Assembly (NCBI GenBank): GCA_008632985.1
Contig: QPGO01000121.1
Span: forward strand, 248,001 to 268,569
Length of the DNA stretch: 20,569 nt
Source of the DNA: Psammoneis japonica
Taxonomy: Eukaryota
Direction: 5' to 3'
Part shown: piece by piece, positions 1 to 20,569 of the stretch
Numbering within the stretch: the first letter of the stretch is position 1
Layout: the number at the start of each line of letters is the position of its first letter
Notes under the pieces: generated by a model
Databases searched by the model: none
The model's input: the letters and a program-made list of their open reading frames with translations, nothing else
Told to the model about the DNA's origin: nothing
Made by a program: the position numbers and the translations under genes

Positions 1-825
1 CGTTTGTTCCACGACGTTTGCTGCGACGTCTGCGCGTTTCGCAGACACTTCTTTAATCTTGAACCACCCGGTTGCTGGGTCAATCATTGTGACTGCCCAC
101 AATTGCAAGGTGTCCTTTCCGCGTCTTTGAATTTTACATGGCCCTGTCACATCTGTGCATGGAGTCTCCCATGGAATTATCTCTGCGACCTTTTCTGGCA
201 ACTTCCCATGATGCTGCGTTCGGCGTTTTGTCTTCTGGCATCGATCGCACTTGGCGCACGTAGAATGCACCGTAGACCTCACACTGGGCCAACAGAAGTG
301 CTGGGCAATGGATGTTTCCGCACGTGTCTCACCTGGATGACACAGTGTCTCGTGGCACCATTCAGTCAGCGGAACCTGTGGTGCTGCGATTTTGTCCTTG
401 TGACAGATTAACTGTCGTGATGACCCTCCCCCATGATGCGCACGAATGGAGCAGTCAGACGAGTCCTTGGCTCTTGAGAGCAGGCGCTTGTCCTTTTGTT
501 GTGCTTTTTGAATGCGCTTGAAGGTGCTGAATGAGCCTGCCACCGCGGTCCAGTTTGTCTCAGCCGTTGAATGGCTTCGCAGACGTTTGCAGCATCGACT
601 GTCAAGCAGAGCACTGCTGGCGCCACCATCTGGCAGTGCCTCAATGGTTTGAGTCTTGCCCTTGCCATGTTTGGCATTCACAGCTGCAAACAAGATTGGA
701 GTGAGATGAGTCTTTTTAACTCGTTTGCGGGATTGGCCTGCAACACGTGTACGATGGTAATCCAGTTGTTCATTTGTACATTCATCTGATGTGCCAAAAC
801 TGCCTGTGTCGTGTCGGCCCCCTTC
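1..825 (-). pseudogene. pol: Gypsy pol remnant: N-half of aspartic protease fused in frame to integrase (HHCC zinc finger and start of core)
   Basis: Manual translation of minus 825->1 has no stop: IEALPDGGASSALL (cf. ALLDSGAS), WTAVAGSFST|FKRIQKAQQKD, then WCHETLCHPGETR...QHFCW...CAKCDRCQKTK...HGKLPEKVAEIIPWETPCTDVTGPC...TMIDPATGWFKI. Not in the ORF track. Confidence 0.88.
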
Positions 826-1902
826 TCAGGCGTCCGAATCTTCGGAATCACTTGAGTTGAGGTCGCGGAAGTGATTGAGCTCCTCCTCGCGGGCCTTGCG
901 CTTTTTCTGAGCGTTGGCAAAGAACTCCTTGACCTTCGATCCGACAAGAGCATCAATGTCTTCCTCATTCCGAGGTTTTGCATCAGGCTTGCCGCCTCTG
1001 TCATTGGAATGTCCAGTCTTGACACGTTTCACGTGGTGCTTGAGCTGACGGCAATCCTCCGTATGATGTCCACAGTTGATCCTGCGCAGCATGCACGACT
1101 TCTGGGTGTTCCGTTGGGTCGTGATCAACGACTCAGGATTGTCCGTTCTACGTCCCCGCTTACATGGAACCTTGGCATGTTGGTCCTGGTTGCCTTCGGC
1201 AAGCTCGACCTGCTCGATGCGCTCGCAGAACTGCACAAATTCGGCGACAGTGTGCGCCAACGGGTCAAAATTCTGTAGCGTCATGAACTTCTGCCATGCG
1301 TTCGGCACACCGCACTCGAACATGTCGCACAGTTCGTCATTGGGCAATGGTGCCGGTGTTTCTCCATCCTCCGTCACGGGTGGAAACTGAGAGATGTGGC
1401 CGTTAATTTCAACAGCCCTCGCGACGTAGTCACGAGCAGAAACCTCTGCGGGCTTGCGCATGAAGCGCCGCAGATGACGCTTCTGCAACAGTGCCGCCCT
1501 GTGTGGGAAGATACTTTCCTTTAGCTTCGCGATGCATGCTGCGCACGTGGCGTTGGTTTGGCATGCCTGCTTGTCAGCGGCATTGTCAAATGACGTCAGA
1601 GCATCGCCCTGTGGCAGGTCATGCACAAGGGCAAATTTTGCTGGCCCGGTCGTGATGTTTTGTCCTTCATGCGCGCGATCCACGTTGTGCAGAAAGATTG
1701 GGAGTGTCTCGCATGTAGCCGCAGAAAGGTGCGGGATGCCCATCTCGTGCGTTGGACTGTCCGGATCAGCGGGGTTGTCACGCAGCTTGAACGTCTGGCA
1801 CTCGCCCTGCTGCAGCTCTTTCTTCTCTGGCCGTGCGAACGGAATCGGCGGCTCAACCCGCTTCTTCATGGTCATTTTAAGACTGTTCGGTCCTGCCAAC
1901 AT
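826..1902 (-). CDS. gag: Gypsy Gag (hypermutated; 1 Tyr in 358 aa)
   Basis: Motifs PPIPF.RPE, FKLR..P, GQN.T.GP, GDAL..F, FP.RA..QKR..RR..RKP, VP..WQ, FCER.E, as I recall them from diatom gypsy Gag; degenerate Cys/His knuckle (CMLRRINCGHHTEDC); lies directly upstream of and in frame with the protease. Confidence 0.8.
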   Translation of the reverse strand: MLAGPNSLKMTMKKRVEPPIPFARPEKKELQQGECQTFKLRDNPADPDSPTHEMGIPHLSAATCETLPIFLHNVDRAHEGQNITTGPAKFALVHDLPQGDALTSFDNAADKQACQTNATCAACIAKLKESIFPHRAALLQKRHLRRFMRKPAEVSARDYVARAVEINGHISQFPPVTEDGETPAPLPNDELCDMFECGVPNAWQKFMTLQNFDPLAHTVAEFVQFCERIEQVELAEGNQDQHAKVPCKRGRRTDNPESLITTQRNTQKSCMLRRINCGHHTEDCRQLKHHVKRVKTGHSNDRGGKPDAKPRNEEDIDALVGSKVKEFFANAQKKRKAREEELNHFRDLNSSDSEDSDA

Positions 1903-2000
1903 TTCGTAGTTTCGTTTCTGTAGATTTCGTCACCTCGCACAACATGCGGGAGCAATGTCACTGTGCCCTGCGCATGCACCAGGCGCTGAAAAAGAAGATG

Positions 2001-2237
2001 TGTTACGACTTTGTCGTTGTGAAAATTGTGAGCTAGTTTAGAGCAGAGAAAATGGGATCGTGCGAATGGGGAATCTTGCCAAATCCCTGTTCGTTCGCAT
2101 TTGGATCGCATCAAATCGATCGTGCGTTCGCATCATGGATCGTGCGAATCAAGCCATCACGCGCCATGCACGAGTGATGTCATCGTGTGGAATCACGCCA
2201 CCATCGTGGGCCAGACGACGGGCTAGTGTGCTTCACA
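2001..2237 (-). repeat. Putative 5' LTR of the gypsy element (~237 bp)
   Basis: Bounded by TGT (2001) and ACA (2237); CpG-rich with internal repeats GGATCGTGCGAAT (2055, 2137) and CGTTCGCAT (2092, 2125); ~100 bp upstream of gag. The partner LTR is outside the window, so the ends are unconfirmed. Confidence 0.55.
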
Positions 2238-4423
2238 CGGATGCTCTCTTGGCATCCTTCTGGAATTGCCCAAGACCCAGAGCCATGCCCTCCTGTGGTC
2301 GTGCTTCCCAGGCACGTGTTAACAACACCACGTTGCCACGTACAAGAGGCTTGTGCATGGTCTTGCCATGTTGTCCAGCAGCGAGGCATGCTGCACTGAG
2401 GCAGAGAGAGGTGCATGCCTGCACACTGTCCTGAAGAGATTGCATTGTCAGCATCTCTGTGGCATGACCTGTGGACAAAAGGTGCCACTTGATGTGACCA
2501 CAGATGTGGGCCACAGATGAGGATGTTGAACCATGGAGCAAAGAAGTCCTTGAATGTGTGTCCACCACCATGCTGATGTTTTCCACACACAATGATCTGA
2601 ACCCACTGTCATCTGAAATTGAACAGTGCAGTTGGAGGGCACACATGACCAAAGAATGTTGGCAAATTGTTGGGAGCTAAGCCGCAAGTTGAGGCAAGAA
2701 AGAATGTTGTCATTTTGTCAGAGAATGCAACTGTGCCAATGAGCACACAAACAATGAATGAATTGCTGGATCAAGGGGCAATGAATTGCAGTTGGATCCA
2801 GACAGAAACAGAAATGACACCGAGTTGCACAGACTGCCGGTTGTCCCTTGTCCCACCTGTGGTGTGGACAAATTTGGGGTTTGTGGTCCCCTTGTGCAAC
2901 TCAACACCAGTCACTGTCCTGAAGTTAAATTGAGAGATGCAGATGGCATTGTTCACAATGCCACAAAGCTGGCATTGTTCTTCCACCATGTTGCGCCAAC
3001 CACAGGAGCCCTGTGCACAGGTGGTTCTGCCACAGAGTGGAGCTCTTTGATGTGACTCCCAAGACAGTCAACGGCTAGATTGTGGACCTGATTGATGGCC
3101 CACACTCTTGAATTGTAAAAGAGAGAGGATTTGTTGCACTCATGTGAAGTGTTTTGTGGAGTGTGTGCAAGGCACATCACACTTGTTTGATGACATGGTC
3201 AACTTGCTCTGATGATGGACAGCACACCAACTTGTGCAGTTCTAAGTTGAAAGACATCAGCTGCAAAGCAACAGGTGTGCCTTGCAATGACATGGTTGCT
3301 GTGCCAAAGGGATCAGTTTTCCCTCAATGCCAGCCAGCCCCAACTGGCTGGTGGTGGAAGTGGCAGGAGTGGCAGGAGTGCATTGGAGTGTCTGGATTGT
3401 TTGGTGACTCTTTATGAGCAAGAGGCTTCACCATTTTCAATCTCTCACCTTTCAGTTTCATCTTGCTCTTTGGAGTGAATTGTTGTTTGGTTTGCATGAT
3501 TTGTCATTCCACATCAATGGGCAGCTGTTGTCCTGCAAGTTTACAGCTTGTTGCATTGACACCTTCAGCAACCCACAACCATCACAGTTTGCCAAGGCAG
3601 GTGCACCAAGCAGTGCACAAGAAGCCTGATGGAATTCTCTTTTGGTTGCATTGACTTGCCAGCTCAGTGAGCATGTTCCAGCTTGGTTTTGGAAAGTTGC
3701 TCCACACAGCAAAGCATGCTTCATGTGTGCAAAACAATTTTGCTCCATGACAGTTCCCTCTCCACATCATCAAACAGTTTGCCAAAGAGACTCACCTTAA
3801 AAAGCTTTGTCCACTCCAGGTGCATTTCCAGTCCTCCTCACCCATCATGTCAACACAATCCTCCAGCAGCAGCCCATTGATGCCCCCTGCACACCTTTGT
3901 TCATGCAGGATTCTGCCAATGAGAAGAAGAGAATGAAATGTTTCTGCCACAGTGTGTGCCATGCAAGGAGAGTGGCAATCATCCCCAGTGGTGCACGGGC
4001 AGTGGAGCAGGTTTGCAACCTGCCTTGCACATCATTTCATGGAGATTTGCATGAAAGTCTTCACCCCACCACTGAATGTTGGCAAAGTTGCTGTTGCAGA
4101 GTTGCACCACATGTGCCTCTCTGTTGATGCAGTGGAAGGAGGCTGTGCACCCAGAGCTGACCCAGAGCTGAGTGTTTGTGTTTGTGCAGTTGATGGTCAG
4201 GGCTTCTTTGACTTGTGTCTGAGCTGGCTGTGCAAGCAGAGCATCTTGAAGGCACCATGGTGGAGATTCCGGCATGCATCACCAGATGTGCCCAAGGACT
4301 TGCCGTGTCTGTGTGTTGGGGAGACAATCCAATCTGTGGGGCTCAACATGCTTTTGTGCAATGAGTGCACCCACAGACCTTGCAACTGCAGGGCACCAAC
4401 TCTCAGAGGCATCATTTTGGTTG

Positions 4424-4660
4424 GTGTTCAAGAAGAGACTGTTGCAGGGTGTGTGTGGGGCTGCTGGCAAAACAAAGTCTGTCCATCAGTGTGCTTGCCA
4501 GGGTGAAAAATTCTGTGACCTGGACCCATCACATGCCATGGTCAGTGTTCAAGAGAAATGGTTGTGGGGTGCATTGGTGGGGAGCACAGCTGGCCAAACA
4601 AAATCTGTCTGTCAGTGCACTTGCTGGGGTGAAAAACTCTGTGACCTGGACCCACCATCA
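4424..4660. repeat. Diverged tandem duplication, ~121-126 bp unit, 2 copies
   Basis: GTGTTCAAGA at 4424 and 4545; GGGTGAAAAA.TCTGTGACCTGGACCCA at 4501 and 4627. Confidence 0.85.
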
Positions 4661-4916
4661 CGCATTGGCAAAATGTGATGCTGATGCCAATGGCAGTGAA
4701 CGGTTCTTGTGTGCTTCCGTTTTGTGAACTGCAATGTGTCCAAGGACACCTTGTGTCAACAATGCCAGCCATGTCTGCTGTGCAGGCAATGATTGAAGAA
4801 GCTCTTTCCACCAGCAAGGGCAGCAAAGCATCGCACACTTTGAGTGTGATGTGGCTGCTGGCCGGGCTGGGCTGCATGTGTGTGTGACCTGTTTGTTTTT
4901 GTGTGCACTCAGAGCA

Positions 4917-4998
4917 GGAGAAAATGTTGCATGGCAGCGTTGAAGGAACAAGAAGGGGAGAAAATGTTCTTGCATGGCTGCATTGAAGGAACAAGGAG
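4917..4998. repeat. Tandem duplication, ~40 bp unit, 2 copies
   Basis: GGAGAAAATGTT...GCATGGC.GC.TTGAAGGAACAAG at 4917 and 4957. Confidence 0.85.
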
Positions 4999-5849
4999 TG
5001 TTGGTGTGTGCTTCTCAATGTTGCACAATGTGGTGGCTGTGAGAACCCCAAACATGTTTGGGGAAGAACAGGCAGGGTGAAAATGGCCATGCCAGCCTGG
5101 TGTGATGGCACTGCCTTTTCCACCACAAGTGGTCTCATTTCCTGAGTCCATCATGCCTCTGCAAGCTGATCCCTTGTTGGAGCCATCCTTTGTTGCTCAG
5201 CTTGCCAACAACCGGAGGCCTCTGGCAATGAAGCAAGTTTGAAGCTCCTCCCCAGTCAGCACAAGTTGGCAAGTGCTTTCTGCCTCCCAAGGGCACAGCT
5301 GTCCTCACAGAACAACAAGTGGTGTGAGAACATGCCACAATGAATGGAGAGTTGGTCACAAAGCTGCAGGCTTTTTACCCTCTTGCTGTGGAGCAGAGGT
5401 GAGCTGGGTGACTCCTCTGAGAAGTGAGCATGCTTTGTGGCTCACTCTGACATGCAACACCATCACACAACTTGGGGTCTAAGACAGGTTGAGTGAGTTT
5501 GTCCAGAGCAAGGAGAAAGCAACTTTGAGGTTGGACAAGACAGCACTGGGCTTGGGCTGTCATCAGAGTGCCAATGCCTCTTGAAAGAACACTGCAAAGT
5601 GGCCTGCAAAGATCTGCCAGCTTTTGTGAAGCATTGCATGTGAGATGACAGAGATGCAGACAACTGCTCATCACTTTTTTGAGTGGATGAGATTGGGTGA
5701 CTTAGAAGTGTGAGAGGGAGTGGCTGTGTTGTGAGTGCCTGACTGCTGAGGCCCAACCTGATTTGCACCACAGCAGGGCCACCAAGCCTCATCCATGCGT
5801 GGGTTCACAGTGGTGCTGCTCTGTGTTTTGGCACTTTGCTCAGACTTCA

Positions 5850-6330
5850 TTCTCCCACACTTTCTCGCCAGAAAACTCAGCTCCCATGCCACTCTGGCTG
5901 TCATGAACACTGCCTGCTGATTGAACATCCAACAATCATTCTTGTGTTGGGGTGTGTGATCTGCAATTGCTTGCACATTTGTTGAATGCAGTCCCCTCTG
6001 ATTGACAAGTGGTGTGTTGGGGTTCTTGTGCTCACAGGAAGTTGCCCTGGAGCATGAGTTCACATGGCACAGCCATCTGCAGCTGCCACACAACCCAGGT
6101 GCATCTCAGGAAAATTGTTTTTGTTTTTCAAAAATTGATTTGCCAGAGATTGCAGCCCCACCTTGGTTGTTGTTGGAAAGTGTGCAGTGCTGACATCAAC
6201 TTCAGTGATGGCTTTGAAACAAGCAAGTGAAGTTCCTTCTAACATGCACAAGTCAAGGATGGATCTCCATGCTGTGGTCTGATGAAAGTGGCTTGCATTT
6301 CCCACACTTCACCATGTTGTTTGACCTGCC
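5850..6330 (-). pseudogene. PIF/Harbinger (DDE_Tnp_4-like) transposase relic, frameshifted
   Basis: Correctly ordered motifs across frames: GCVAAADG (6095-6072; cf. GCVGAIDG), NP...NQRGLHSTNVQAIAD (6003-5959; cf. NRKGxYSxNVQAxCD), GSVHDS (5914-5897). Boundaries approximate. Confidence 0.65.
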
Positions 6331-7369
6331 TTGGAGGAGCACCCCCTGGCACACTTGTGTGTTCATCAAGCCCTTCTCAGGGCTGTTGTGCCAACACAAG
6401 AGGCTGCACATTTGAAGCTTCAAATGCCACCAGTTGGCCTGTGCCCTGTTGCCAGGTTGAAAAAACTGCCAATTTTTCACTGGGGCCAGGCTTCTCATGG
6501 GGAGACAAGCCACAACTTTCTGACAAGTGGCACATTTGACTGGCTGCAAACATGTCTGCAGTCAACAAGGTAAAAGTTGTGCATGGCCACAACCATTGTC
6601 CATGTGCTTTGTCATGTCTTTGGAGCAGACAAAGTTCAACCTGTCACCAAAATTTCATTTTTGGTGAACACACCCACCCAGTGCAATGAATCCAAATCCA
6701 GGTCATTTTTGGAAGCACACAGATCCATCTTTAAAGCATGACCAAGCCCAAGAGCAAAAATGAGTCCATGCAAAGGACAGCCTCCAGCCCCCTTGCAGCC
6801 AAGTTTGACCTTTTCATTGACTGCCAGCAGCTTGTGGTTGCTTTCTTGCTGCTGTCAACCTTCTTCCACTGGTTGTGTCAAGCAGGTCACAAAGAATGCA
6901 TCTTGCATGATGCCACTCACAGGAGGAGCACACAGCCAGCTGCTCACATCACTTCTTCTTTGGTCTCACTGCCACCAAGGTGTCAAGAGCAAAAGACACT
7001 CTGTTGTGGATGCCATTGCAACAAATGCAAAACAGTTGCCACTTTTGCATTGACAAGTGGCAAGCATTTGTTGCAGCACATGCACACAATCATCACTTTG
7101 TGGAGATTGGGTGCCCACCTTGTGACATTTGACAATGCAAAATGACCCTCACTGACCATTGGGTCACTCTTCTCTTCAGCCATTGAAAAATTTGAATGCG
7201 CTCATGCAAGATTGGCGCAATGGTCATTTGCTCTTCACCTCATGCTCTTTCTCATTCTTCCAAAGAGCAACCAAGAGCAACAGCCACAAGCAGACAGATT
7301 TTAATGCTGTCATTTTGGTGCAGAATGCCATCTGCCATTCTTGTTTGTTCACAGGAGGAGCCATGCCAC

Positions 7370-9505
7370 ATGAATGCTGCACAACATGGAGCCACCCCAG
7401 TGGCACAAGGGGGTCAGAATGCCCCAAACACAAATGCAGTGGCACCACAGCCACAGGCGTCAGTGCAGCAACCAGCTGCAGCTGTGGGGAATGCACTGCC
7501 ACCACTGCAAGTCCCTGTGCCTCCCCACAGCCCAGGGACACAATTTGCAGGACCAGGCCAACCACTGCCACCACTGCCAGGAGGCATCCCAGTGGTGCTT
7601 CTAGCACTGCCAGTGCTGTGGAACCCTCAGAACCATTTTTTGTCAGATGCCAAAGACCCACACCATGGTGACTGCACCAAAGCCATCCTGGATTTTGCCA
7701 TGCCCATGCAAGGAGCATCACGGCACAACCCAGGTGCGCTGCATGACAGGGTTGCATTGGCCTCAAGTCATGACCTCCCAATGACAATCACACTTCATTG
7801 TCATGCCAATGGCACCACCAACAAGGGGCAAATGCAGGCATTGCATCAAGTCTCAACTGGCCCCACTGCTGTGGTGGGACAAGCTTAACCATGGGACAAT
7901 GGCACATGTGCTGTCATGGGCGATCTGACATGCAGCCAATTCACACTCATGGAGTTTGGGGAAGATTTGTGTGCTCCAACCAATCAAGGGACTTGGGTTC
8001 TGACACACAACATGCTCCAAGCAGACATTGCAGCCACACAGAACAGCCTCCATGCATCTGCATGTGCAAGCTGATGCACAGGACTCTGAAGAGGTTCAGA
8101 CATGCAATGTGATGTTCGCGCCTTTCGAGTTTGTCTGCCTGTTCCTGCCTGCACCCCTTGGTCCAAAGGACATGCATGCAAGGGTCCATGGAGCAGCCAC
8201 AGCTGCCAACAAGCTTGCTGCACTGACGCCGCTTCTAGACTGCCTGCGGGTTGAGTGTTGCACCATGCAGAATGCACAGCTCCAGTTGGCAGCAGCACAG
8301 CCTTGGCCAACCATGACGCACCCTCCTGATGATGCACTGATCCATTTCTTTGATTGCAAGGTGGAACGAAACACCTGCCAGGCTGCAGGGGGGGATGCAG
8401 ATCCAACCACAGCAGTTCCAGCCCACAATTGTTGCCATCAAGGGACTCACAATGGAGCAGTGACAGCAGCAGTTGGATGAGGAAGCAAGGTGCATGGCCA
8501 CCCCATGAAGCAAGAGGCCAGCAGAGTTCTGGAGAGTCTTTTGGGTTGCAAAGATCCTGCGTTGGTGCCAGATGCACAACAAGGCTGCACCACCTTCACT
8601 GTGGTCCAGAATGCCATCAATGAGCAGCATCAAGCCCTTCAGGTGCATTTTGACCTGCCAGCAATGGCGAGTCTCGTCACCAAGTTGGCGCAACTTGATT
8701 TTGCAGGGTGCAACCAGGAGGAGCCCACCCAAGGCATCAACCCTTTCTTGTTCAGACTCACTGCCCCACACACAGCTGAGCAAATTGCCTGCCACAACTC
8801 AATGCATGTGCAGTTCCATGGAGAAGCAGGAGGAGTGCCACAGCCACAAGATGTGCAGGCACTCAAGGCACCAGACAAGGCACTGGTGGCAACAACTGTG
8901 CAGGCAGCTGTGCAATCACATGATGGATGCCACCTCATCTGCTCCACCACTCTGGGTGAAAACCACCCTGTTGTGCAATGGCTCACTCTGCAGCATGCAA
9001 ACATGGACAGGCATGCCAACAAGCTGGTGCACTGGCAAACACTTCATCCGACCCCACCTGTTGACTTCCAGCAACATGCACAGGTCAAGCTGCATCATTG
9101 GTTCCTGTCACAAGCAACAGTGCACCAGGAGATCCCATTCATGGGGCACAACATCATTCACAAGGCAGCTGAGGGGGCAATGTTTTGGCACCTCAGCTTG
9201 CTGCCTGCCATGCTTCCCACCAGTGCAGTCGGTGTGACTTCACCAGAAGCTGCCAAGTTGGACATGGCGGGCACCACAGTGTCATTTGGAGCCCGTCTTG
9301 TGACCCGCACTTTGCAACACCATGCAATTGTGCCAACAGGCGCTCACATGAGGTAAAATTGCATTGCACCCAGGACAAGATCGAGCTGCCCAAAGACAAC
9401 CAAGGATGCATCCACTGCAACCCTTGCCACATCAAAGGGCAGTGCAACTCCAACTGCAGCTCCAGCTGTGATCACCACAATGACCTCACCAATGAAGAGC
9501 AGTGA
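7370..9505 (+). pseudogene. Probable DIRS/Ngaro-type (tyrosine-recombinase retrotransposon) ORF1/Gag-like relic with stops and frameshifts
   Basis: Consecutive plus-strand ORF pieces (7196-7888, 8028-8480, 8490-9356, 9185-9505) read as one protein: P/A/Q-rich N-terminus, DPHHGDC, PWD..GD, NVMFAPFEFVCL, LLDCLRV, GINPF, and a C-terminal Cys/His finger CNPCHIKGQCNSNC...DH. Family call is from recollection of diatom elements; no RT or YR domain is visible. Confidence 0.45.
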
Positions 9506-9992
9506 CAATTCCTTGCACAGGGCAAGAAACGCTGGAAGACTGAATGGGTCTTTTGGCAATGGCATGAGTTCGGGGGCCAGTTGCCAAGAGCCATCGTGTG
9601 TGTCGGCGGCACACTCACAACACCAAGAAATTGTGGAGAGTTTCAAAAGGCAGCACAACCACCACACTGCACATGGACAGGATGTTGCTGTTGCAATTTA
9701 CAATGACAAATTAGACAAGCACATTAAAGCCAACACAGCATCATTGCGTCATAAAGGACTCAGCCACTGAGGAGATTGGAGACCACCGAATCACATCTGG
9801 GGTGACGGAAGTGTGTGGTTGGGAGTGACAGGTGGCAGGAAAGTGGCGTGCAGTGTGCTGGGCAGTGAAGAGAAAAGGATTGGCCGATGGTGCAGACAGA
9901 TGGATTTGTGGAAGATGCACTGGTGATGGTCAGGTGTTGGGGCATGTCAGAAAATGAAGATGACTGGGTGGAAGAAAACAATGACTCCTCAC

Positions 9993-10189
9993 TGCTGTCT
10001 AAATGGCAGATGAGTCTCCATGCAGAGACCGTTGCAGGAGCCGAAAGACTGGTGTCGTGATGTCGGCACTGCTGTTGTCATTCTTGTGAGCTCTGTGGCT
10101 CGAAAGCAAACTGCATCGCGTGACGTGCACGGAACTGAGAGCACACATGATTGTGTGCGATGAACCAAAATCTTGTTCAAATCCTGTCA
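9993..10189 (-). repeat. Putative 3' LTR of the copia element (~197 bp)
   Basis: On the minus strand it begins TGACAGG immediately after the purine run GGGGAG and ends ...AGACAGCA at ~9993 (9996 is an alternative end). Confidence 0.6.
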
Positions 10190-12144
10190 CTCCCCAGTTT
10201 GCTTGAGGGGTCAACAGCAATGGATTCGAAGTCAGATTGGTTGAAAGCCTCGGGGTCGAAGTTCCAAAACATTAAAGGATAAAGGAGGTTCCAGACTTGG
10301 GAGCAACCCCAATGCTTGCTGAGGATGTCAGCCGGGTTGCGGGAACCTTCGACAAAGTGAAACTCGAGGAATCCGGAGGCAATCGCCTCACGCACACGAT
10401 GGAACGAGAGGGCAGTGTGTTGCTTGTGTAACTTGGAGTGCGGGATGATGGCACTGTCCACAACCGACTTGTTGTCCCCAAACATGTGACATGTTTCACG
10501 AATGGGAACGCCAAGGCAATGTAAAGTGATGCGCAGATCAATGATCTGATCGACACATGTCCTTGCGGCAACAAACTTGGATCCATGCATGGCAGTCTCG
10601 ACTGTTGCTTGTTTCTTAGAGAACCAATCAGCCGGAAACTTGTTGAGGAAATGGAGGATGCCAGTGACAGAGCGTCCAGTGAGCATGCAATGGAACAAGC
10701 TCGCATCGACACAGTGCGTGGTGGTGACGAACTTGCCATGTGGCTCGGGTGCATCTTGCGGGAGCAGCTCTTCTACCTCCCCATGTGCAGATTGAGCCCA
10801 ATCGCACACGGGCTTGGGAAGGTCCGAACAGTCGGGCTCCTCGGTGTGCACTCGAAGGGCGCCATGACGCATCTTGGAGAGGAATCCGCAGATGCGTTTG
10901 GCACGGTCCAGGTGGCCTTGATGGGGCGCTGCATGGAAGCTGGACAGGGACATGACAGCTGCAGCAATGTCAATGCGGCCCAGAGACACGGCCCATTGCA
11001 GGGATCCAATCAAGGACTGGAGCTGGTGGATGCCATCCGGTTTGAGCAATTCTGAGGTGTCGAGTTCAGGGTGGTCACCCTTGTCAAGGGGTGAAAGCAC
11101 ATCAGTGCAGGGCTTCTCCCCAAAGAGGCATGTGCAGTTGTCAACCATGCGCTCAATGTGCTTGCGGGGAGCAAGGCACAGGGTGCCGTCTGGGTCACGG
11201 GTGAAGTCGCAGCCAAGATGGAACTCCAATGGTCCAGTGCCCTTGAGCTTGAACTTGCACTTCTCCATGAGGGTGTCTGCAAAAACCTGGGGGTCCTTCA
11301 TGGCGAAGGCCAGGTCATCCACATGCACTGCCACGCATTCGCAGAGGTCACCATTCCTGCGCAGCCAGATGTCAGGTTCGGCCTTGCATGGGAAGAAGCC
11401 TTCGGCACGCAAGCAATTGGCAAAGCATTCATGCCATCTGAGACCGGAGCTGCGGAGTCTGTACAAGGCCTTGTGGATGACGAGGATGTGTCCTTCCAGG
11501 TCGCCAAACTCGGGGCCTGCTGCGATGCACAGTTTCTCCTTGGTCGCAGCTTCAAGGCAGGCATTCCCAATGTCAGTGGCCCAGGTCTCTAGTTCATTGA
11601 GTTTGGCCAGGAAGATCATCATTCGCAGGCCACGGAGGGACACCACTCCGGAATGGACACTGTCGACGGGCACGTCTGTGAGGTGTCCATCGGCGACAAG
11701 CCTTGCTTTGTGCCGTCCGTCATGTTTGATGTCGCAGACGAGATGTGCCCGGATCTTCTTGTGTCCTGATGGAGCACTGGAGTCCTTGTGGTGTCCGCAG
11801 TCGTGAAAGACCTCGCACTCATCAAGTTGGGTCATCTCGAGGTCCGTTGCGTCTCCCCACTTGCGGTTGCCATTGCACTCATCAAGGGCCATGGCATGCT
11901 TGTAGTCCCGTGGTGCTTCATGCCCGCACTTGTGTCGTGGCGCAGCATGAAAGGAGCGTAACTTGGCTTGGTTGGCCATGCGGAACAGCTTCTTCTGACG
12001 AAGTGCCATCTTGCAAAAACATCTCCATCCTTCGGTTTCTAGAAGGCCGTGCTCACGCGCGTAGATGGCACAGGTGATGGGGTCATCCTTGGCAATGATG
12101 GCAAGGGGTTCGGACGTGATCTCCCCACTCTCCCATTCAAGCAT
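10177..12144 (-). pseudogene. pol: Copia reverse transcriptase + RNase H (open frame, RT motif altered to HVDD)
   Basis: 655 aa: KARLVADG, TDIGNACLEA, KALYRLRSSG, VHVDDL, LEFHLG, SLIGSLQW...R.DI, CVDAS...RSVTG, W.SKKQ.TVETA.HGS.FVA, GDNKSV, H.VRE, NPADILSK. Only 4 Tyr. Confidence 0.93.
10190..10195 (-). other. Polypurine tract core (GGGGAG) of the copia element
   Basis: Minus strand AAACTGGGGAG|TGACA at the end of pol, the usual copia PPT/LTR junction. Confidence 0.6.
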
Positions 12145-13150
12145 GACGTTGTAGCTTGAGCCTTTCCAAGAGGGATCATGGGGTCACAATGGTCCTTCGT
12201 GAGATGCGATGTGTCGGAACTTCCAGAGAGTTGAGTCCTCGTCTTCTTGCTCAATGTGGTGCATGATGTCATTGCAGGCCAGGACTTCCTTGCATTCATC
12301 ATTGTTGATGGAGCAAATGAACTTGACCAGTTCAGGATTGCCTCTGATTTTCCAGTCGTGGTCCTCAACGGCTTTGACGATGCGGGCTCTGTGGCGTTGT
12401 CCATCCTCTTGTGGCTTCATGAGGAAGGTGCGTCCCACGACATCCTCGGGGTCAAAGACTGGCATTTTGGGCATCCTGATCGCCTCCCCATCTGGTGAAT
12501 CTGGCAAATTCTCGGAGTCGTGACGGGATTTAATGACAGGGTCAGCAGATTCCTTGTCAGGAGGATCAAGACGCAGGTTTGGAGCAGACGGATCACGGGC
12601 GGAGCGCACGTTGGAACAGCAGAGAATCTTCTGAGTGTCGTCAGAAAGAATCTCAAACGTCATTTGGTGACCAACATGTTTGGCGATGCCAATGAAGCGA
12701 CCACACAATTCACGGGATTCGGGCAGCCAGTCGGAATCATCCAGGTGGCAGAGCACACAGGTTCCCACCATTGAAAGCGGAGGAGCGGGCTGATGTCGGG
12801 AGCAGAGCCGGACAGCACCTCGGTGGGGGCATGCCAGTGGAGCTTGGCGGACGCCGTGTGGTTGAGCACAAAACACACGCACATCAGGGTGAGCAGCCAG
12901 GTGTGAGCCGGGGACCCAAAGCGATCCATGATGGTGTTGGCCATGGTCTTCACAGTTTTGTGGCGGTGTTCAGCAAAATTCTGATGCTGGTGATGGGGCT
13001 CGCTTTGCCAACCAGAGATGAAGAGGGCACGAAGGATGCCAAGAACCTTGTTGCTGATCTCAACCTGAGCACGGTCGCTGATGAGCTTGGACGGGGCACC
13101 GCGATTGCAAATGTTGTCTTTGAGGGTGTTGACAAATTCTTTGTCAGTTT
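12145..13150 (-). pseudogene. pol: Copia integrase core and IN-RT linker, with one frameshift (~12752) and one in-frame TGA (12186-12184)
   Basis: KTDKEFVNTLKDNICNRGAPSKLISDRAQVEISNKV...WQSEPHHQHQNFAEHRHKTVK...PDISPLLRFQWWEPV / HLDD...GRFIGIAKHVGH.MTF...HEGPL*PHDPSWKGSSYNV, continuing in frame into the 655 aa ORF. Confidence 0.9.
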
Positions 13151-13229
13151 TTTTAATTCTGCGATTGCTTGTGCTGAATGTGCCTGCATGTTTTTAGTGC
13201 CACGCTCTCCGCAGAACTGCCGACACACC

Positions 13230-15083
13230 ATGGCGTCTCGTTCCGTCGCTGATGGTGGCCATGCCCCCAACGACAACAATGACATCAACATGGCGGACGA
13301 CATCACTGTTGATCACGCATCCAACAAACCTTCTTCTAAACCGAAAGAGCCTCCCCATGTGGAGATCACCCCACGCTTTGACATTCGTGGCCCGGAGGCG
13401 ACGTGCAAGCCGATGACCCTCACCACCGCTCATCTTCAAGTTTTGCAACAAATCCCATTCACGTGTCACAACGATGTTCAGATCCTGGACAACCACAACA
13501 ACCAGATCACCAATGTCAACATTGCAGAATGGATTGCAACCCTTCAGCACGAACGTCACTTCACGATTTCTGCGACTCGCAGTGGAGAAAAACGCCCTGT
13601 CGTCCACCGCCTGTGCCACCGCATTTTAACCGAAGTCCCCCTTCGAGAGATCCGTTCTCATCCTCATGTTCAGAGCATTTTAGACTCAAACAACATGGGT
13701 TTGAAGCGCCACTGCTGGAATGAGTCAGTGATCGACACGGCGACTCCGGCATGTTACGTCGCTGCCCCATCCAAGCACACTCCAATCGACGAAGCCACCA
13801 AGTTGTTTGCAAAAGATCCAGGCGAATTCAAGTCCAAGATGCCGAAATTTCGTCTCGCACCTACCTCCATTCGTGCCGATAACGATCAATTGGCTCCTCC
13901 CCTTCGCACCGTCACTTGTGCCATCGAAGTGCAACAAGACGATTGCCGCACTGCAGGAAAAACCTTGCTGTGCGCCTCCAACAAGCTGCCGACACACATT
14001 GTCACGGCGAAGACACGGTGCATGTCGCCACTCGCCTTCTATAACACCGTCAAACTCCAAGCTCGTCGCAATCATGATGCTTGCGTGGTTCTGCTGTTGT
14101 GCACCTCCCCGGATGTGATGTTTTATTTGGAAAACCACATCAGGGCCATCTCCGGAGTGAAAGAGATCTGCAAGTCTAGCACCACCCCTGGTCGGTGCAA
14201 TGTGTTGGTCAAACGTACGGATTTCAAAGCTTCCCGTGCTGGTGTCTCTACATGCATCATGGATCAAATTCCAAATGTCCCCAAAGAATCTTGGCCGTCT
14301 CCTCCATTTCCCGATCAACCTCACGTGTCTGGTGTGCTTGACGAGCAGTCCGACACCAGCAAATCCATGGTGTCTGCGAGCATCTGCAGTTTGGAGTCCC
14401 CAACCTTCTCAGATGCATCTCCATTGACGGACACCCAGGCCTCGAGGTCAAACCGTCCTCCTCCTCCGGCACAGTTCACGGGCAGAGGCCATGGTCGTGG
14501 CAGCACCCCTGGTCGAGGCCACTCTCCAAGCCCGTCAGTCCCTCCGCAAATCTTCGCCCCCAGGCCCTCCTTCCAGGCAACTCCTTGCGGACATTCTGGA
14601 CACCCAGGAATCTTGTCCCCTCCGCATTCGTACGCTCAAGCGACTCAGTCGTCTACAAGTTCTTCCCTTGCGTCAGCACAGATGGCGGAAGTACAACAGA
14701 CCCCACCACAAATGCAACAGAAGAACGATGCGGCTCTAGCAGATCTCCGCCGACAGCATTCTCAGGACATGGAAGCTTTGCACAACACCTTTGCCAAACA
14801 ACACTCCCAGGACATGGCCACCATGCAATTTCAGCATTCCCAACAGTTGGCTGCAGTGCAGGAACAAATGAACCAAATTGTTCAACCACTTCAAGCAAAC
14901 CAACCCATTCAGAGTTCAGCCAGAAAACGCCCCAACAACATGGAAACTCCTGAATGCCCTGGCGACCACAAAGAACGGGAGACGGATTTTTGGGCAGGGG
15001 TTGGACTTCGCTGCCTCCACCCCCTCAAGAAATTGGGCGACCTCCTGACATTGTTTCCTCGCCCCACTCACCACTTGCGCTAA
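13230..15083 (+). CDS. LINE ORF1 protein (~617 aa from ATG 13230)
   Basis: 3' part of track ORF 12771-15083; globular N-half, P/S-rich region with GRG repeats, Q-rich coiled coil with three QHSQ repeats (~14750-14850); sits upstream of ORF2. The ancestral stop may have been earlier (e.g. TGG at 14991 from TAG; inference). Confidence 0.7.
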   Translation: MASRSVADGGHAPNDNNDINMADDITVDHASNKPSSKPKEPPHVEITPRFDIRGPEATCKPMTLTTAHLQVLQQIPFTCHNDVQILDNHNNQITNVNIAEWIATLQHERHFTISATRSGEKRPVVHRLCHRILTEVPLREIRSHPHVQSILDSNNMGLKRHCWNESVIDTATPACYVAAPSKHTPIDEATKLFAKDPGEFKSKMPKFRLAPTSIRADNDQLAPPLRTVTCAIEVQQDDCRTAGKTLLCASNKLPTHIVTAKTRCMSPLAFYNTVKLQARRNHDACVVLLLCTSPDVMFYLENHIRAISGVKEICKSSTTPGRCNVLVKRTDFKASRAGVSTCIMDQIPNVPKESWPSPPFPDQPHVSGVLDEQSDTSKSMVSASICSLESPTFSDASPLTDTQASRSNRPPPPAQFTGRGHGRGSTPGRGHSPSPSVPPQIFAPRPSFQATPCGHSGHPGILSPPHSYAQATQSSTSSSLASAQMAEVQQTPPQMQQKNDAALADLRRQHSQDMEALHNTFAKQHSQDMATMQFQHSQQLAAVQEQMNQIVQPLQANQPIQSSARKRPNNMETPECPGDHKERETDFWAGVGLRCLHPLKKLGDLLTLFPRPTHHLR

Positions 15084-15195
15084 CATCAATTTTCCGTCGG
15101 ACTTCACGACACCGGAGTTTTTCCTTCCAAACCAACACCAAGTTGATGCAGTGCTCTAAGCCTCAGTCTTCTCTTCGGAGGAGCATGGCCCAACA

Positions 15196-18100
15196 ATGAG
15201 TCGTTCGCCTTCCACTGAAGATCCAGCTCTTGCTTGGCAGAACATCCTAGATGGACGCAGTTGCCACCCTCCCACAGATCGTCGGATAGATTTTTCTCGA
15301 CTAAAGACCAACGCACCTGTGGGCGACGAACTCCGGCCCAAGCTTTCTCACCACACGCACCTTTATGCCTTCAATGCCAACAGTTGTAAATTCGACAAGC
15401 GTGGCGGTGACATGAACGAGTGCTGTCAACTCGCCTCCGAAATTCAAGCCGATGTCATTGGCATCTCGGAGGTGTGCCTCGACACCACCCAATTTGACAT
15501 TTTATCCATGTGTAGATCTGCCATTTCCAAGTCTTTACATCATGGGCGGTCCACCTTTTCAAGCAGTTCCACCACCTTTGCAACGCAATGCAAACCGGGT
15601 GGAACGGCCTTGTTGTCATGTGGCTCGATTTCTGCTCGCTTCCGGACTCAAGAATCCGACCCGCTCGGCAGGTGGTCAATTCAAGTCTTCGATGGCAGGA
15701 ATGGACGCCAAGTTATGTTTGTCTCTTGCTGTCGAGTTTGCGCTAAGAACCAACAACACCCAGGGAAGACAACGGCGTGCGCTCAACAATTGGCCCTCCT
15801 CCGGCAATTGGGGCGCCGGTCACTCGATCCCAGGAAGGCGTTTTGTGCAGACTTGTCCCGAGTCTTGCAGGATTTTCTGGTGGATTCCAATCGAGAAGTC
15901 ATTGTTTTTGGGGACTTTAACACTGATTTCACCTGTGACACTGACTCTTTGGCTGCCGTTGCCCAGCGCTTCAATTTGTCTGACGTCCTGTTTAACATCA
16001 TGGGCGACACTGAGTTCTCCACATGTGCCAGAGGTTCCCGGCGTCTTGACTACGTGCTGGCCTCTCCTGGCGCTCTTGCTGCAGCTCGCTTCGGTGGACA
16101 TGAAGCCTTTGGATGTCGAGTCACTTCTGATCATCGTGCTTGCTTCGTGGACTTTGACACTGCAGCTCTTTTCGGCAACCCGACTGTCAATTTACCCAAG
16201 GCATCCTTCAGGGACATTCAGGCTACGTCTGAACCACAGCTCACCTCTTGTCTACAGGCAGTCGGCCCAATGATTCAGAGTCGTTCGGCATTGCAACACT
16301 CTTTCCAGCTGCTGGAACTTGACGCTCCAGATCATGCTCTGGCTGAACGGTTGGACCGTGATCTCCTACAGTTCTCTCTTTCCGCTGCCAAGAAATGCCG
16401 AATTCATCGCGAACCCGACTGGTCGGTTGAACTTTCAGACCTGAGGTGCCGGGTGCACATCTTTTCCCGCCTCGCATCCATGATGAGGACAAAATTGGAC
16501 TGCGCATCACAGATTCGAGCAATGCGAGACAAACTGAGTGGATCCTTCACCATCCCCGACACTTTGCAAGGTTGTCAAGAGGCGCTGCGCGCTGCTCAAG
16601 ACGATTGCAAGCAACCAGCGGCTGACAGTGTCGTGCGCTGCGAAAGGGAAGTTTCCGAGAGGACAGCCGCACTCGATCTGGAAGGCACTGAGGAGTCACG
16701 TAAACAGGCAACTGTCTTGTGCAACATCCGCAAGGCAGAAGAGATGAAAAAGCTGTTCAGGAAGATTGACTCATGCCACACTCAGAGGGACACAGGCATT
16801 CAGAGCGTCCAAGTTCCCAGCAATCCTTCCATTCCTCCCAAAGAATGTCAAGATTGGATCGCTGTTGATGCTCCGGAAGAGGCAGCCACTGCTCTCCGTC
16901 AACGCAGTCAAAAACACTTCGGTCAGGCACAAGGCACCCCTCCAACGGCACCTCCGTTGTCCATGGACCTGGGCCATGAAGGTGACACTGTCATGGTGGA
17001 TCTTGTTCTTGATGGTGAGCATGACACGTCGGCTTTGAACAAAGCAACTGCCCTTTTCATCAACCACTTGCGTCGCCATTCCCCAGTCTCTGCACCGAAT
17101 CTTCCATCTGCATCAGATCTCGAAGGAAAAATAAAACGTTGGAAAGAATCCACCTCCACGTCCATTTGCTCCGGCCTCCACCCAGGTCATTGGAAAGCAA
17201 TGTATGCTCCTCATCGGTTCTCAGATGCAACTGATTCCGAAGGCAATCCCACCCCTGAACGTGAGGCCCTCGATGAAGTTCAACAATCCCTCACTCAAAT
17301 CAGGTTGAATCTGCTTAACTGTGCCCTTCGTTGGGGATGCTCCTTTCACCGCTGGCAAGACACTGTCAACGTGATGATCTTTAAAGAGCCAGGCAACAAC
17401 AAGATGCATCGTCTCCGTGTCATCCATGTCTGCGAAGCTGACTTTCAATTAATCTTGAGCATCAAGTGGCGCGCTCTGGCCCAAAACATGGAACACCGCC
17501 GATTGTGCAACTCGGGGATCTGCGGCACTCGCGCCTTCTTAAATGCCAACACTCCTGTGTGCCTTGAAGAACTCATGCTCGAGATTGGCCGTGCCTCCCG
17601 AAAATCCGCCATTCACAGCGATGATGATTGCACATCGTGTTGCGATCGGAATGTTCCCGCTCTGGTTGCAGTTGAGAGCCACAGCAATGGCGTGCCCAAA
17701 GAAGTCACTCAAGTCGCTGACGCTGCCATTCACAAGGCTCGCTGCTGGTTGCGAACGGTGCTGGGCCTGTCACTAACTTCTTGTTCTCACTCTGATGACT
17801 TCCCCATTTGTGGAACAGGACAGGGCAGCGGAAACTCTCCGTTTTGCTGGAACCAAATTTGCAACAGTCTGTTCCAGATCTTCAATCAACGGGCACATGG
17901 TGCATTTTTCGAGTCCCCAGATCACTCCCTCTCGCTGCAGATGTTCAATGGAGGATGTGTCGACGACACGTCCAAGCAGGTGAACGATTTTTGTTCGAGT
18001 CCTCAACCTTGTGTCCTCGATTTGGCTTTCAAGATGCAGGAAGATAATCAACTGTGGTGCGACCTTTTGAACGCGGCTGGCCACGAGTTAGAATTACCCA

Positions 18101-20569
18101 AATGCTCCTTCCACGCTGTCGAATGGATGTTTGCAGAGGACGGCGAACCTTACCTTTGACCCTGCAACGAGGACATTGACATTGAAATCTCTTCTGCAGA
18201 CCGCACCACGACTGGGTCAAGCAAACAATTGTCCGCATGCTCTTCTCACAAGACACTTGGACACTGCAAAGCTCCAGCGGGGACTCAAAAGACCCAGCAC
18301 TCGGCTCTGAAACAAAAGAGTGACGGCATTGCCCTGTTCCTTCGGTCTTGTCCTTTAGATCGACACGAGTCATGGACTCACCATTTTGCTTGTCATCTGT
18401 CTGCAACCACGTGTGTTCTCCCGAACACTCACTTCAAGGAGAAAGAGTTGCTCGAAGTACAGAGGAAGGCCATGCATGCCATTTTTGCCAAATGCGGACA
18501 CAATCGGAACTCGAAACGTGACGTCCTCTTCGGACCTCATTCCCTGGGAGGCGGAGGTTTCAGGTCTTTAGACGTGGAACAGGGTGCAGCGCAGGTTCTG
18601 CAGTTTCTCATCCACTGGCGGGGCTTTGGGCAACCTCAGGTGTTGTCGCGAATCGCTGTGTCGTGGATTCAGTTGCAGCTTGGCACAGGTGTGAGTTTTC
18701 TTCAGGACGTCCATGCCAAGCTCCCTCGTTCCGAATCGAAATGGTTCATGTCCTTGCGTTCATTCTTGGCCCGGATCGATGCCACCATCGATTGTGATCA
18801 CACTGGAGTGCTTCCACTCCAGCGAGACAACGACCAATGCATCATGGACGTTGTGCTTCAATCCCAGGCGTTCAGTGATCGTGAGATGCGGTGGGTCAAC
18901 TGCTGTCGTCTTCATCCAAATGTTTTGACTCTGTCGGATGTTGCCTCTCCGGATGGTTTTTCGCTCGATCCCTTTAAAGTGAACGGCCGATCGTTCCTTC
19001 TCAGCAGTCGCAGCACTCTGAATCCTGTCGAACAACAACGTCCATCCGCTTGGGCATGGAAACAGTGGCGTCGAGCCTGTTCCTTGTTTTGCAAACCAGA
19101 CTCGCTCGATCTACGACACCCTTCAGGTCAACGGGTTGTGCCAGCTACGGAAATGCGCATGACACATGTCGCATGTTACGAATCCTCCGAGGATTGCTTG
19201 TGCATTCGTGGAGATTCGGGTTTCGAGATTTTCCCAGTGCACCAAGGTTGTGCGGAGACTCTCACCGCTCTGGAAAACGTTCCAGATCTTTCCCCAGCCG
19301 CTTCCCCTGTGCCAGCAGATGCGACTACAACCGGTTTGTGGCGGATCAAGTCACTCGGTTCTCCAGCATCCTTGCCAACAGTCCCTCCCGTCCCGAATGA
19401 TTTCTTGGCCATGCTGCGGTCTCTTCCTCGGTGGGAATCTGCTCTGTTCGAAAAATTGCATTTACATTGGTCCACATTTGAAATCGCTGAGCTCCTCGTC
19501 ACCCACAAGGTTTCAGCAGCTAGCGACGGTTCGGTCCTCCATTTCAAAGGTGCATTCGGGTGGACGATTGCGATCGACGGGGTTCCTCTTGTGGATTGTG
19601 CCGGTCCAGTTTTCGGTTTTCGCCCATCGTCTTGTCATGCGGAGGCACACGGTCCACTGTCTTTTCTCCGTTTTCTGATCCGATTGTCAGACTGTTGTTC
19701 TACACAGGTCAGCGGCGCCGATTTGCATTGCGACAATTCCGCTCTCATTCGCACCATCTCGAATTTCCAGGTGATTCCTCATCCTGCCGACGAGGAGGAG
19801 ATCCAAGGAGACTTCCACTGGCGTTTTCACATTGCTGGCACTCTCTCTCCGGATTGGGACATTGTCAATGAGGTCTTCCATTCCCCAAGACAGCTGTCAG
19901 AAGCACGCACTGATGAACTGTCGTGTCCTGCAGTCGAGATTCACTGGGTGAAGGGACACCAAGACGACATTCTTCCCATTGACTCTCTCTCTCAAGCGGC
20001 AAAGTTGAACACACGTGCCGACAGACTCGCTGGACAATTCCAAGGTCGATTTACGGGCGATGCTCTTGCTGCTCCCCGCATGCCTCATTGCCGAGCAAAC
20101 CTGCTTCTTCAAGGAGCCACTGTTTCTTCCAAATGCAAGCCGGTCATCAGATGTCAGGCATCGAGTCCCGCACTGGTTCAGTGCATGAAAGAGAAACACA
20201 GTTGGTCCGACGAAGTGTGTGCATCGATTGATTGGGACGTTCATTCGAAATTGATGTCACAAAACATTCGTCGAAAAGTCAGTGCCGTCAAGCTGGTTCA
20301 AGATCTTCTGCCCACCAACAAGATTGTACACAGATGCAATCCGACACATCCGGACTGTTGCACTCACTGTCAGGACCCCATGGAAGACAGAGATCACATT
20401 CTCCGTTGCCCTCATGATGAAGCCTGGCGCAGAAAATTTTTACAAGGATTGCGCAAGAAGTGCGATGATGTTCACACGTCTCCTTCCTTACGAGACTTGA
20501 CAATTTCGGCTGTTGAAGCATGGTTTCGAGGCGAGCTTTTGCACTCGGAACAATTTCATCACAGCGTCG
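15196..20569 (+). pseudogene. LINE ORF2: AP endonuclease, reverse transcriptase, RNase H, CCHC knuckle; one in-frame TGA at 18157-18159
   Basis: APE: FNAN, DVIGISE, PGGT, DPLGRWS, GDFN, RLDYVL, SDHR. RT: KEPG...LRVIH..EAD, DCTSCCDR, GTGQGSGNSP, GCVDDT, LELPKC. The same frame continues after the TGA with no stop to the window end (manual translation): KTLG, FGP.SLGG, ASDGSV, GAFGW, AEAHG, CDNSAL, DWD, HWVKGHQD, LNTRAD, C.HC....EDRDHILRC. Confidence 0.92.

Follow-up and report, generated by a model that had tools for sequence, protein, structure and literature searches.

TpA loss near saturation in a graveyard of retrotransposon fragments: a probable DNA-level hypermutation of the kind reported in Bigelowiella natans

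Which process can remove almost every TpA step from a stretch of dead transposons? The question is raised by 20,569 nucleotides of contig QPGO01000121.1 (assembly GCA_008632985.1, positions 248,001 to 268,569), here called the window, meaning this whole stretch numbered from its first base. The window is a graveyard of retrotransposon fragments, namely a Ty1/copia element, a long interspersed nuclear element (LINE) and a long terminal repeat (LTR) element whose integrase finger is of gypsy type, together with an older low-copy remnant. A first examination of its letters alone (the sequence-only reading) had proposed a genome defence running in reverse of repeat-induced point mutation (RIP), whereby the A:T pairs of TpA steps in transposons are turned into G:C, and had not known of any described system resembling it. 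The TpA rule, the A:T→G:C direction, the DNA level and the mirror image of RIP all stand. The absence of a described system is outdated, since TpA→TpG/CpA hypermutation of integrated viruses has been reported in the alga Bigelowiella natans (Mettrop et al., 2026; bioRxiv 10.64898/2026.01.13.699255). The window is best regarded as a new and unusually saturated case of a process described once, in 2026, and we favor, with a probability of about 0.6, a DNA-level TpA→TpG/CpA process of the same kind as in B. natans, acting here on dead transposons.

Dinucleotide counts were compared with the expectation from base composition (observed/expected ratio, o/e), and 200 mononucleotide shuffles of the window served as control. 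Over the whole window (1-20569, 52% G+C), the depletion is uniform: TpA occurs 130 times against 1171 expected (o/e 0.11), CpA and TpG reach o/e values of 1.66 and 1.59, CpG is at 0.56 and TpC, at 1.07, is not depleted. The shuffled sequences contained 1170 TpA on average (standard deviation 25.5, minimum 1087), placing the observed count 41 standard deviations lower. In all of the 20 1-kb windows the TpA o/e is 0.25 or less and the highest value of any 200-bp window is 0.46, so that the depletion runs without a gap. It is deepest in the low-copy stretch at 2669-9338, where TpA and CpG o/e fall to 0.04 and 0.09, TG and CA rise to 1.94 and 1.98, and the TpA frequency is 0.0027 compared with 0.0063 for the whole window. 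The manual count of the sequence-only reading, 24 TA between 2400 and 10000, proved exact, and there is indeed no TA between 3799 and 5375.

That reading had set its count against about 475 TpA expected, and the reasoning stands, except that part of the TG and CA richness has an ordinary cause, CpG decay. The mass balance is nearly closed with both losses: the TA deficit (1041) and the CG deficit (612) add up to 1653, against a TG plus CA excess of 1595. Two processes, TpA loss and CpG decay, hence feed one TpG/CpA sink, and about a third of the dinucleotides lost, some 612 out of roughly 1650, can be put down to CpG decay. The near-absence of CpG in 2669-9338 had been overlooked. In every segment TG and CA are balanced, with 797 and 837 occurrences, respectively, in 2669-9338. 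The younger elements tell the two processes apart: TpA and CpG o/e are 0.10 and 0.66 in the copia fragment, 0.14 and 0.84 in the LINE and 0.22 and 0.95 in the LTR fragment at 1-2668. As TpA is already down to 0.10-0.22 there while CpG is still at 0.66-0.95, the per-site rate of TpA loss is several times that of CpG decay in this group of elements. Regarding the TA that survive, the base 5' of them (strands pooled) is T in 104, G in 70, C in 69 and A in 17 cases, whereas the base 5' of TG is nearly even in the same order (1158, 1049, 966 and 987). ATA/TAT are almost extinct and TTA/TAA are best retained, a skew which suggests a recognition context of three or more bases, wider than the dinucleotide itself.

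Conserved positions allow the direction of change to be read. The copia fragment was aligned by codons with 42 intact relatives from metagenome contigs, and dinucleotide sites common to at least 60% of them were scored. Only 4 of 27 conserved TA sites are kept; the others have become TG (12), CA (7), TT (3) or CT (1), that is, 19 of 23 changes give TG or CA. By comparison, conserved sites of the remaining fifteen dinucleotides have survived in 512 of 607 cases (65-100% for each; Fisher p = 2e-14 versus TA), which bears out the expectation that A→G changes would be concentrated in the TpA context. At the protein level, of the 25 Tyr columns conserved among 60 copia homologues, 4 have stayed Tyr, whereas Cys now stands in 10, His in 7, Phe in 2, Trp in 1 and Leu in 1: 17 of the 21 lost Tyr became Cys or His, compared with 54 changes in the 417 other conserved columns. 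In the LINE, aligned with its best homologue (P0121), a single one of 27 Tyr positions is kept and 10 have become Cys and 2 His. The near-elimination of Tyr noted at the outset (5 in about 1790 codons, 4 in 655 and 1 in 358) was recovered on recounting, with 5 of 1802 codons in LINE open reading frame (ORF) 2, 5 of 668 in the copia frame for reverse transcriptase and RNase H (RT-RH) and 2 of 367 in ORF 826-1929, and the integrase piece holds 1 in 275.

The catalytic motifs carry the same mark. The copia YVDD reads HVDD at 11325-11314 (minus strand), and the sequence-only reading was also right about CVDD at 17956-17967 (plus strand), GNACL at 11568-11554, CECVAVH at 11343-11323 and SCCDR at 17635-17649; GPC, which it had listed as well, was not found in the LINE frame searched. 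Furthermore, at 7568-9562 on the plus strand lies a frameshifted remnant of a protein of about 700 residues from an orphan family, recognized by homologue alignment. Counted over pooled positions, which come from related homologues and hence are not independent, Tyr of the homologues is kept at 0 of 194 (67 His and 30 Cys instead) and Arg at 52 of 511 (109 His, 73 Gln and 37 Cys), the latter being what CpG decay predicts. Tyr→Cys corresponds to A→G on the sense strand and Tyr→His to T→C on the sense strand. As each of the two is frequent and all segments show TG and CA in balance, editing of sense transcripts is excluded as the main source and duplex DNA is implicated. As far as the letters of these elements tell, the loss is TpA-specific A:T→G:C mutation on both DNA strands.

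Is the footprint a trait of the families concerned or was it acquired copy by copy? Across 78 related copia loci the TpA o/e has a median of 0.71 and a minimum of 0.49, compared with 0.10 in the copia fragment of the window, and 120 homologous proteins have median contents of 4.3% Tyr, 1.1% Cys and 3.7% His, compared with 0.7%, 4.5% and 6.3% here. The worry that active homologues might naturally carry Cys or His at the altered sites is thereby settled: the homologues are Tyr-normal and the footprint is not a family trait. Resident copies were followed through the contigs of the single public run containing the sequence (X1), placed on the window at 80% likeness, their summed depth serving as copy number (single copy, about 58). 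The depth is 16,000-39,000 over 1-2668, mostly 55-200 over 2669-9338 (one bin at 565), 11,000-87,000 over 9339-13340 and 300-680 over 13341-20000, a profile that therefore resolves the window into two LTR-element fragments of high copy number, one LINE of medium copy number and about 6.7 kb close to single copy.

Between the window and the other copies in this run, transitions dominate (C>T 491, G>A 428, A>G 377, T>C 380, each transversion 45-90). Among the 40 best-supported of the 2201 variant places, 13 set TG or CA of the window against TA in other copies and another 13 set them against CG; 6 places, forming 3 adjacent pairs, have CA in the window and TG in other copies, 3 have CG in the window and TG or CA elsewhere, 5 belong to other classes and none is a TA of the window altered in other copies. 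For seven of the TA-retaining sites, all in the LTR fragment, TA-bearing contigs make up 16-90% of the depth; for the remaining six, TA is present in every aligned contig. With TA, TG and CA variants found among the copies, resident copies therefore vary at sites that were ancestrally TA, and the comparison indicates that TpA loss arose after insertion, copy by copy, and not as a family trait.

The precedent in B. natans is close. According to the preprint (Mettrop et al., 2026), 231 of 302 nuclear single-nucleotide mutations in mutation-accumulation lines fell in two integrated viral regions, one of a nucleocytoplasmic large DNA virus (NCLDV) and one of a virophage; 230 of these 231 were A→G or T→C, stated to be all on TpA. 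The rate was about 6e-7 per site per generation, and a subset of the lines alone showed the process, with about 1e-7 to 1e-6 as its range. The same source describes 324 TpA-depleted coding sequences with a mean TpA frequency of 0.0018, enriched for reverse transcriptase (RT), endonuclease-RT (EN-RT) and DDE, as well as 124 genomic clusters in which TpA is scarce and CpA+TpG abundant, and it proposes an ADAT2 homologue as candidate adenine deaminase; it gives no extended motif beyond TpA. Judged by the preprint, the mechanism advanced in the sequence-only reading is essentially the one already proposed for B. natans.

The window shares with B. natans the identical dinucleotide rule, change from A:T to G:C only, both products (12 TG and 7 CA at the copia sites), the hitting of foreign or selfish DNA and long-term TpA depletion with CpA+TpG gain; in B. 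natans the TpA-poor coding sequences are those enriched for RT, EN-RT and DDE. By the cluster criterion of the preprint, 10 consecutive 1-kb windows (2001-12000) pass both thresholds and all 20 pass the TpA threshold. The two cases differ in that the mutations of B. natans were caught de novo in mutation-accumulation lines, mainly in an NCLDV and a virophage insertion that are only mildly depleted (Rho 0.45 for the NCLDV), whereas the window displays the end state only, near saturation, on LTR and LINE retrotransposons present at hundreds to thousands of copy-equivalents. In our literature search, TpA→TpG/CpA hypermutation was described only in this preprint, the other reports dealing with RIP, ADAR, APOBEC or 5-hydroxymethyluracil (5hmU).

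The A:T pairs of TpA steps have been converted to G:C at the DNA level, leaving one strand with TpG and the other with CpA. This conversion has run nearly to completion and took place after the copies diverged from their families, and CpG decay has acted additionally on the oldest part (2669-9338). By analogy with the B. natans mutation-accumulation lines, the host may possess an activity aimed at DNA that is silenced and either foreign or repeated. Most likely an enzyme would deaminate the adenine 3' of T, and the resulting hypoxanthine would be read as G in copying; both the targeting of transposons and the identity of the enzyme are put forward on that analogy. Several observations weigh against this proposal. 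In run X1 the depth over the part with the deepest depletion (2669-9338) is close to that of a single copy, so that repetition need not be the trigger. Half of the 1-kb windows (10 of 20, at 1-2000 and 12001-20000) lie below the CpA+TpG threshold of the preprint, though they pass its TpA threshold. By summed depth the families persist at hundreds to thousands of copy-equivalents, so that the process cannot be credited with any obvious halt to them. In addition, the context classes given above cover the 40 best-supported variant places, and Pfam scans of frames found no host gene in the window.

An alternative is a genome-wide bias of TpA toward TpG/CpA that is not targeted at all, under which neutral DNA would drift toward a TpA-free state and selection would keep TA in genes and young copies. 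The bias would account for the o/e of 0.04 in the low-copy stretch, for a depletion that is uniform across unrelated sequences and for a loss that looks age-like, the CpG-depleted part having also lost the most TpA. It sits poorly, however, with B. natans, the one organism in which the process was measured, where it keeps to certain regions while mutations elsewhere follow an ordinary AT-biased spectrum (Mettrop et al., 2026); moreover, the low-copy stretch is itself a gene in decay, with frameshifts and from an orphan family that is rare, and not demonstrable host DNA. This case against the bias draws no direct evidence from the window itself, and we regard the bias as improbable though worth taking seriously. 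A different target within the same dinucleotide has a smaller claim: a TET/JBP-type dioxygenase could turn the thymine of TpA into 5hmU or a derivative in silenced chromatin, with mispairing or faulty repair leading to T→C, a route that sequence cannot distinguish from adenine deamination because TpA is self-complementary. 5hmU is enriched on dinoflagellate transposons and helps silence them (PMC11572971), early work cited in PMC11071213 placed it preferentially in TA and TC contexts in Crypthecodinium, and the non-random flank of surviving TA implies a wider recognition context. Yet the base-resolution map in Breviolum (PMC11071213) has 5hmU without sequence preference, the window lacks any loss of TpC (TC o/e 1.07), and a mutagenicity of 5hmU in vivo at such a rate is only inferred; the thymine route appears quite improbable.

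Far less credit can be given to RNA editing fixed by retrotransposition, in which ADAR- or ADAT-type A-to-I changes in transposon transcripts would be reverse-transcribed into DNA. The 5'-U preference of ADAR fits the TpA context (as stated in bioRxiv 10.64898/2026.01.13.699255), three of the elements in the window are retroelements and the Tyr positions of the LINE lean to sense-strand change (10 Cys versus 2 His). But T→C on the sense strand is frequent, with Tyr→His at 7 of 25 copia columns and more His than Cys in the orphan remnant (67 versus 30, pooled), and it counts against RNA editing because editing of sense RNA cannot yield it. TG and CA are also balanced in each segment, other copies differ at single TA sites and not in lineage-wide blocks, and the footprint of B. 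natans arises in single-copy, transcriptionally silent integrated DNA (same source), which together leave this explanation very improbable. Finally, an assembly or sequencing artefact, whether modified bases miscalled at TpA or over-polishing, is very unlikely. Some long-read chemistries systematically miscall modified bases, and the platform of the window assembly is not on record. Nevertheless, an independently built contig of run X1 (3416 bases) covers 2905-6320 with 14 differences and restores TA at 0 of the 10 listed, although this run may be the sample behind the window assembly and its library type is not on record. Run X1 itself carries TA, TG or CA copies at the same site, and the changes occur alongside frameshifts and CpG decay, which is what real old pseudogenes would show. 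Selection against TA, for instance through avoidance of a nuclease or of insertion sites, was also considered and is rejected, given the destruction of catalytic Tyr and the stops and frameshifts present in the elements.

Set beside other mutagenic systems, the preferred process, DNA-level conversion of TpA to TpG/CpA, resembles RIP of Neurospora and other fungi, which likewise makes dinucleotide-specific transitions on both DNA strands of resident transposon copies, copy by copy, and fills them with missense changes. RIP is nonetheless opposite in direction: it turns CpA into TpA and would leave a TpA excess with a CpA/TpG deficit, whereas in the window TpA falls to 0.11 and CpA and TpG rise to about 1.6. 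RIP also depends on duplication, whereas the most affected stretch of the window is near single copy. ADAR hyperediting, which affects RNA viruses as well as double-stranded RNA derived from repeats, resembles the footprint in that A is read as G with U/T preferred 5', but its target is RNA and its clusters are strand-specific, while the window is altered on both DNA strands equally, including a low-copy stretch without a recognizable retroelement domain; the Tyr→His changes of the copia fragment and of the orphan remnant depart from a sense-strand-only pattern. CpG decay through deamination of 5-methylcytosine shares the TpG/CpA sink and is clearly present as a second, separate process (CpG o/e 0.09 in 2669-9338 and 0.66-0.95 in the young elements), but it cannot remove TpA and lags far behind TpA loss in young elements. 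APOBEC3 is alike as a host deaminase used as a mutagenic defence against retroelements with a context-specific footprint; it acts, however, on cytosine in minus-strand cDNA and produces strand-biased G→A changes and more A+T, unlike the strand-symmetric A:T→G:C change of the window.

To our knowledge, the mutagenic genome defences recognized so far (RIP and APOBEC) deaminate cytosine and push DNA toward A+T. A defence directed at TpA and converting A:T to G:C would have the opposite chemistry, and the B. natans report describes it with a mild long-term footprint and with no enzyme identified. The window makes the end state visible: about 85-95% of retrotransposon TpA is gone, all Tyr codons are at risk and YVDD motifs are destroyed. 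If the source is an organism other than B. natans, TpA hypermutation could tentatively be viewed as a genome-scale, RIP-like transposon defence, saturated on LTR and LINE families, an idea that we hold with somewhat less than even confidence. With such a second lineage, editing of DNA adenine or of TpA thymine would be a recurrent eukaryotic defence and not the curiosity of one alga, the comparative question would become which deaminase or dioxygenase is common to both, and the genome of the window would allow the responsible enzyme to be found by comparison. There would also be a practical warning for annotation. The erasure of TAA and TAG leaves dead elements with deceptively long open frames, which gene callers would over-predict; an ORF free of TpA is no gene, and entries of public databases for proteins poor in Tyr but rich in Cys/His may represent hypermutated pseudogenes. 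Indeed, only TGA stops remain in the window, in which 27 stop-to-stop frames reach at least 150 residues, many of them overlapping in antisense; it is because TAA and TAG have been erased that dead elements keep long open frames on both strands.

The elements themselves are all fragments. Pfam recognizes three domains in the window (Integrase_H2C2, RVT_2 and an apurinic-type endonuclease). Within the window there is no LTR pair or inverted repeat of at least 40 nt, so that all elements are truncated, and the sole repeat of at least 40 nt is a 69-nt direct repeat (4463-4531 and 4589-4657, 86% identity, 126 nt apart); neither tandem repeats nor Rfam matches were found. The high-copy LTR-retrotransposon fragment (1-2668, minus strand) carries Integrase_H2C2 at about 366-220 in a frame running from 1929 to 1. 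About 520 residues without recognizable RT or RNase H precede this zinc finger, and the domain order, a gag-like region followed by integrase, may differ from the usual gypsy order; the gypsy label of 1-1929 depends on the H2C2 finger alone. The high-copy Ty1/copia fragment (9339-13340, minus strand) has RVT_2, with an RT-RH frame at 10177-12183 and an upstream frame at 12184-12969.

The LINE ORF2 (15160-20568, plus strand) has its apurinic-type endonuclease at about 15370-16134, the CVDD mentioned above and an in-frame stop at 18157-18159. Three homologues of 549-1749 residues were found for it, and the Pfam scan of its frame did not recognize the RT. Upstream of ORF2, a medium-copy open frame (13341-15083, plus strand) without Pfam domain or homologue may be LINE ORF1; for ORF 12696-15080, no homologue was obtained at E≤1e-3 among 7247 candidates of 437-1392 residues and no Pfam domain above chance. 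The best identities to public proteins are at most 67% in the copia search and at most 34% in the LINE search, low values despite hundreds to thousands of copy-equivalents; the proteome of the source is therefore probably absent from the public protein collection, a weak argument against the window stemming from an annotated genome like that of B. natans.

It had also been claimed that gypsy, copia, LINE and Harbinger elements, as unrelated classes, share the signature. This is borne out for the LTR element with the gypsy-type finger, the copia element and the LINE. For Harbinger, no DDE/Harbinger Pfam family was detected in the six frames of 2001-10200 and 12901-15203, in the long frames of 1-1929, 10177-12969 and 15160-20568 or in 70 frames of at least 70 residues, a scan that left out the other frames of 1-2000, 10200-12900 and 15200-20569; the notion that a DNA transposon shares the signature is therefore without support.

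The low-copy stretch (2669-9338), in none of whose six frames a Pfam domain was found, overlaps the orphan-gene remnant. The orphan family counts 24 representatives at E≤1e-3 among 1.84 billion proteins, and its members are rich in proline at the N-terminus and conserve a cluster of Cys/His at the C-terminal end. No Pfam domain was found in 9 homologues, the best match to Protein Data Bank (PDB) profiles has an E value of 0.23, and no member was found in IMG/VR. An AlphaFold model of the family has a predicted local distance difference test (pLDDT) score of 72.9 and a predicted template modeling (pTM) score of 0.42, and a Foldseek search with it returned nothing at E≤1e-3 in PDB or BFVD. The closest homologue of window 8061-9544 (P0124) contains 0.4% Tyr, compared with 2.0-2.3% in three full-length relatives (P0125, P0126 and P0128), and, of 7 columns that are Tyr in most relatives, 4 are Cys or His in it. 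At least one further public sequence may therefore share the footprint, and P0124 may itself be a TpA-hypermutated copy annotated as a gene.

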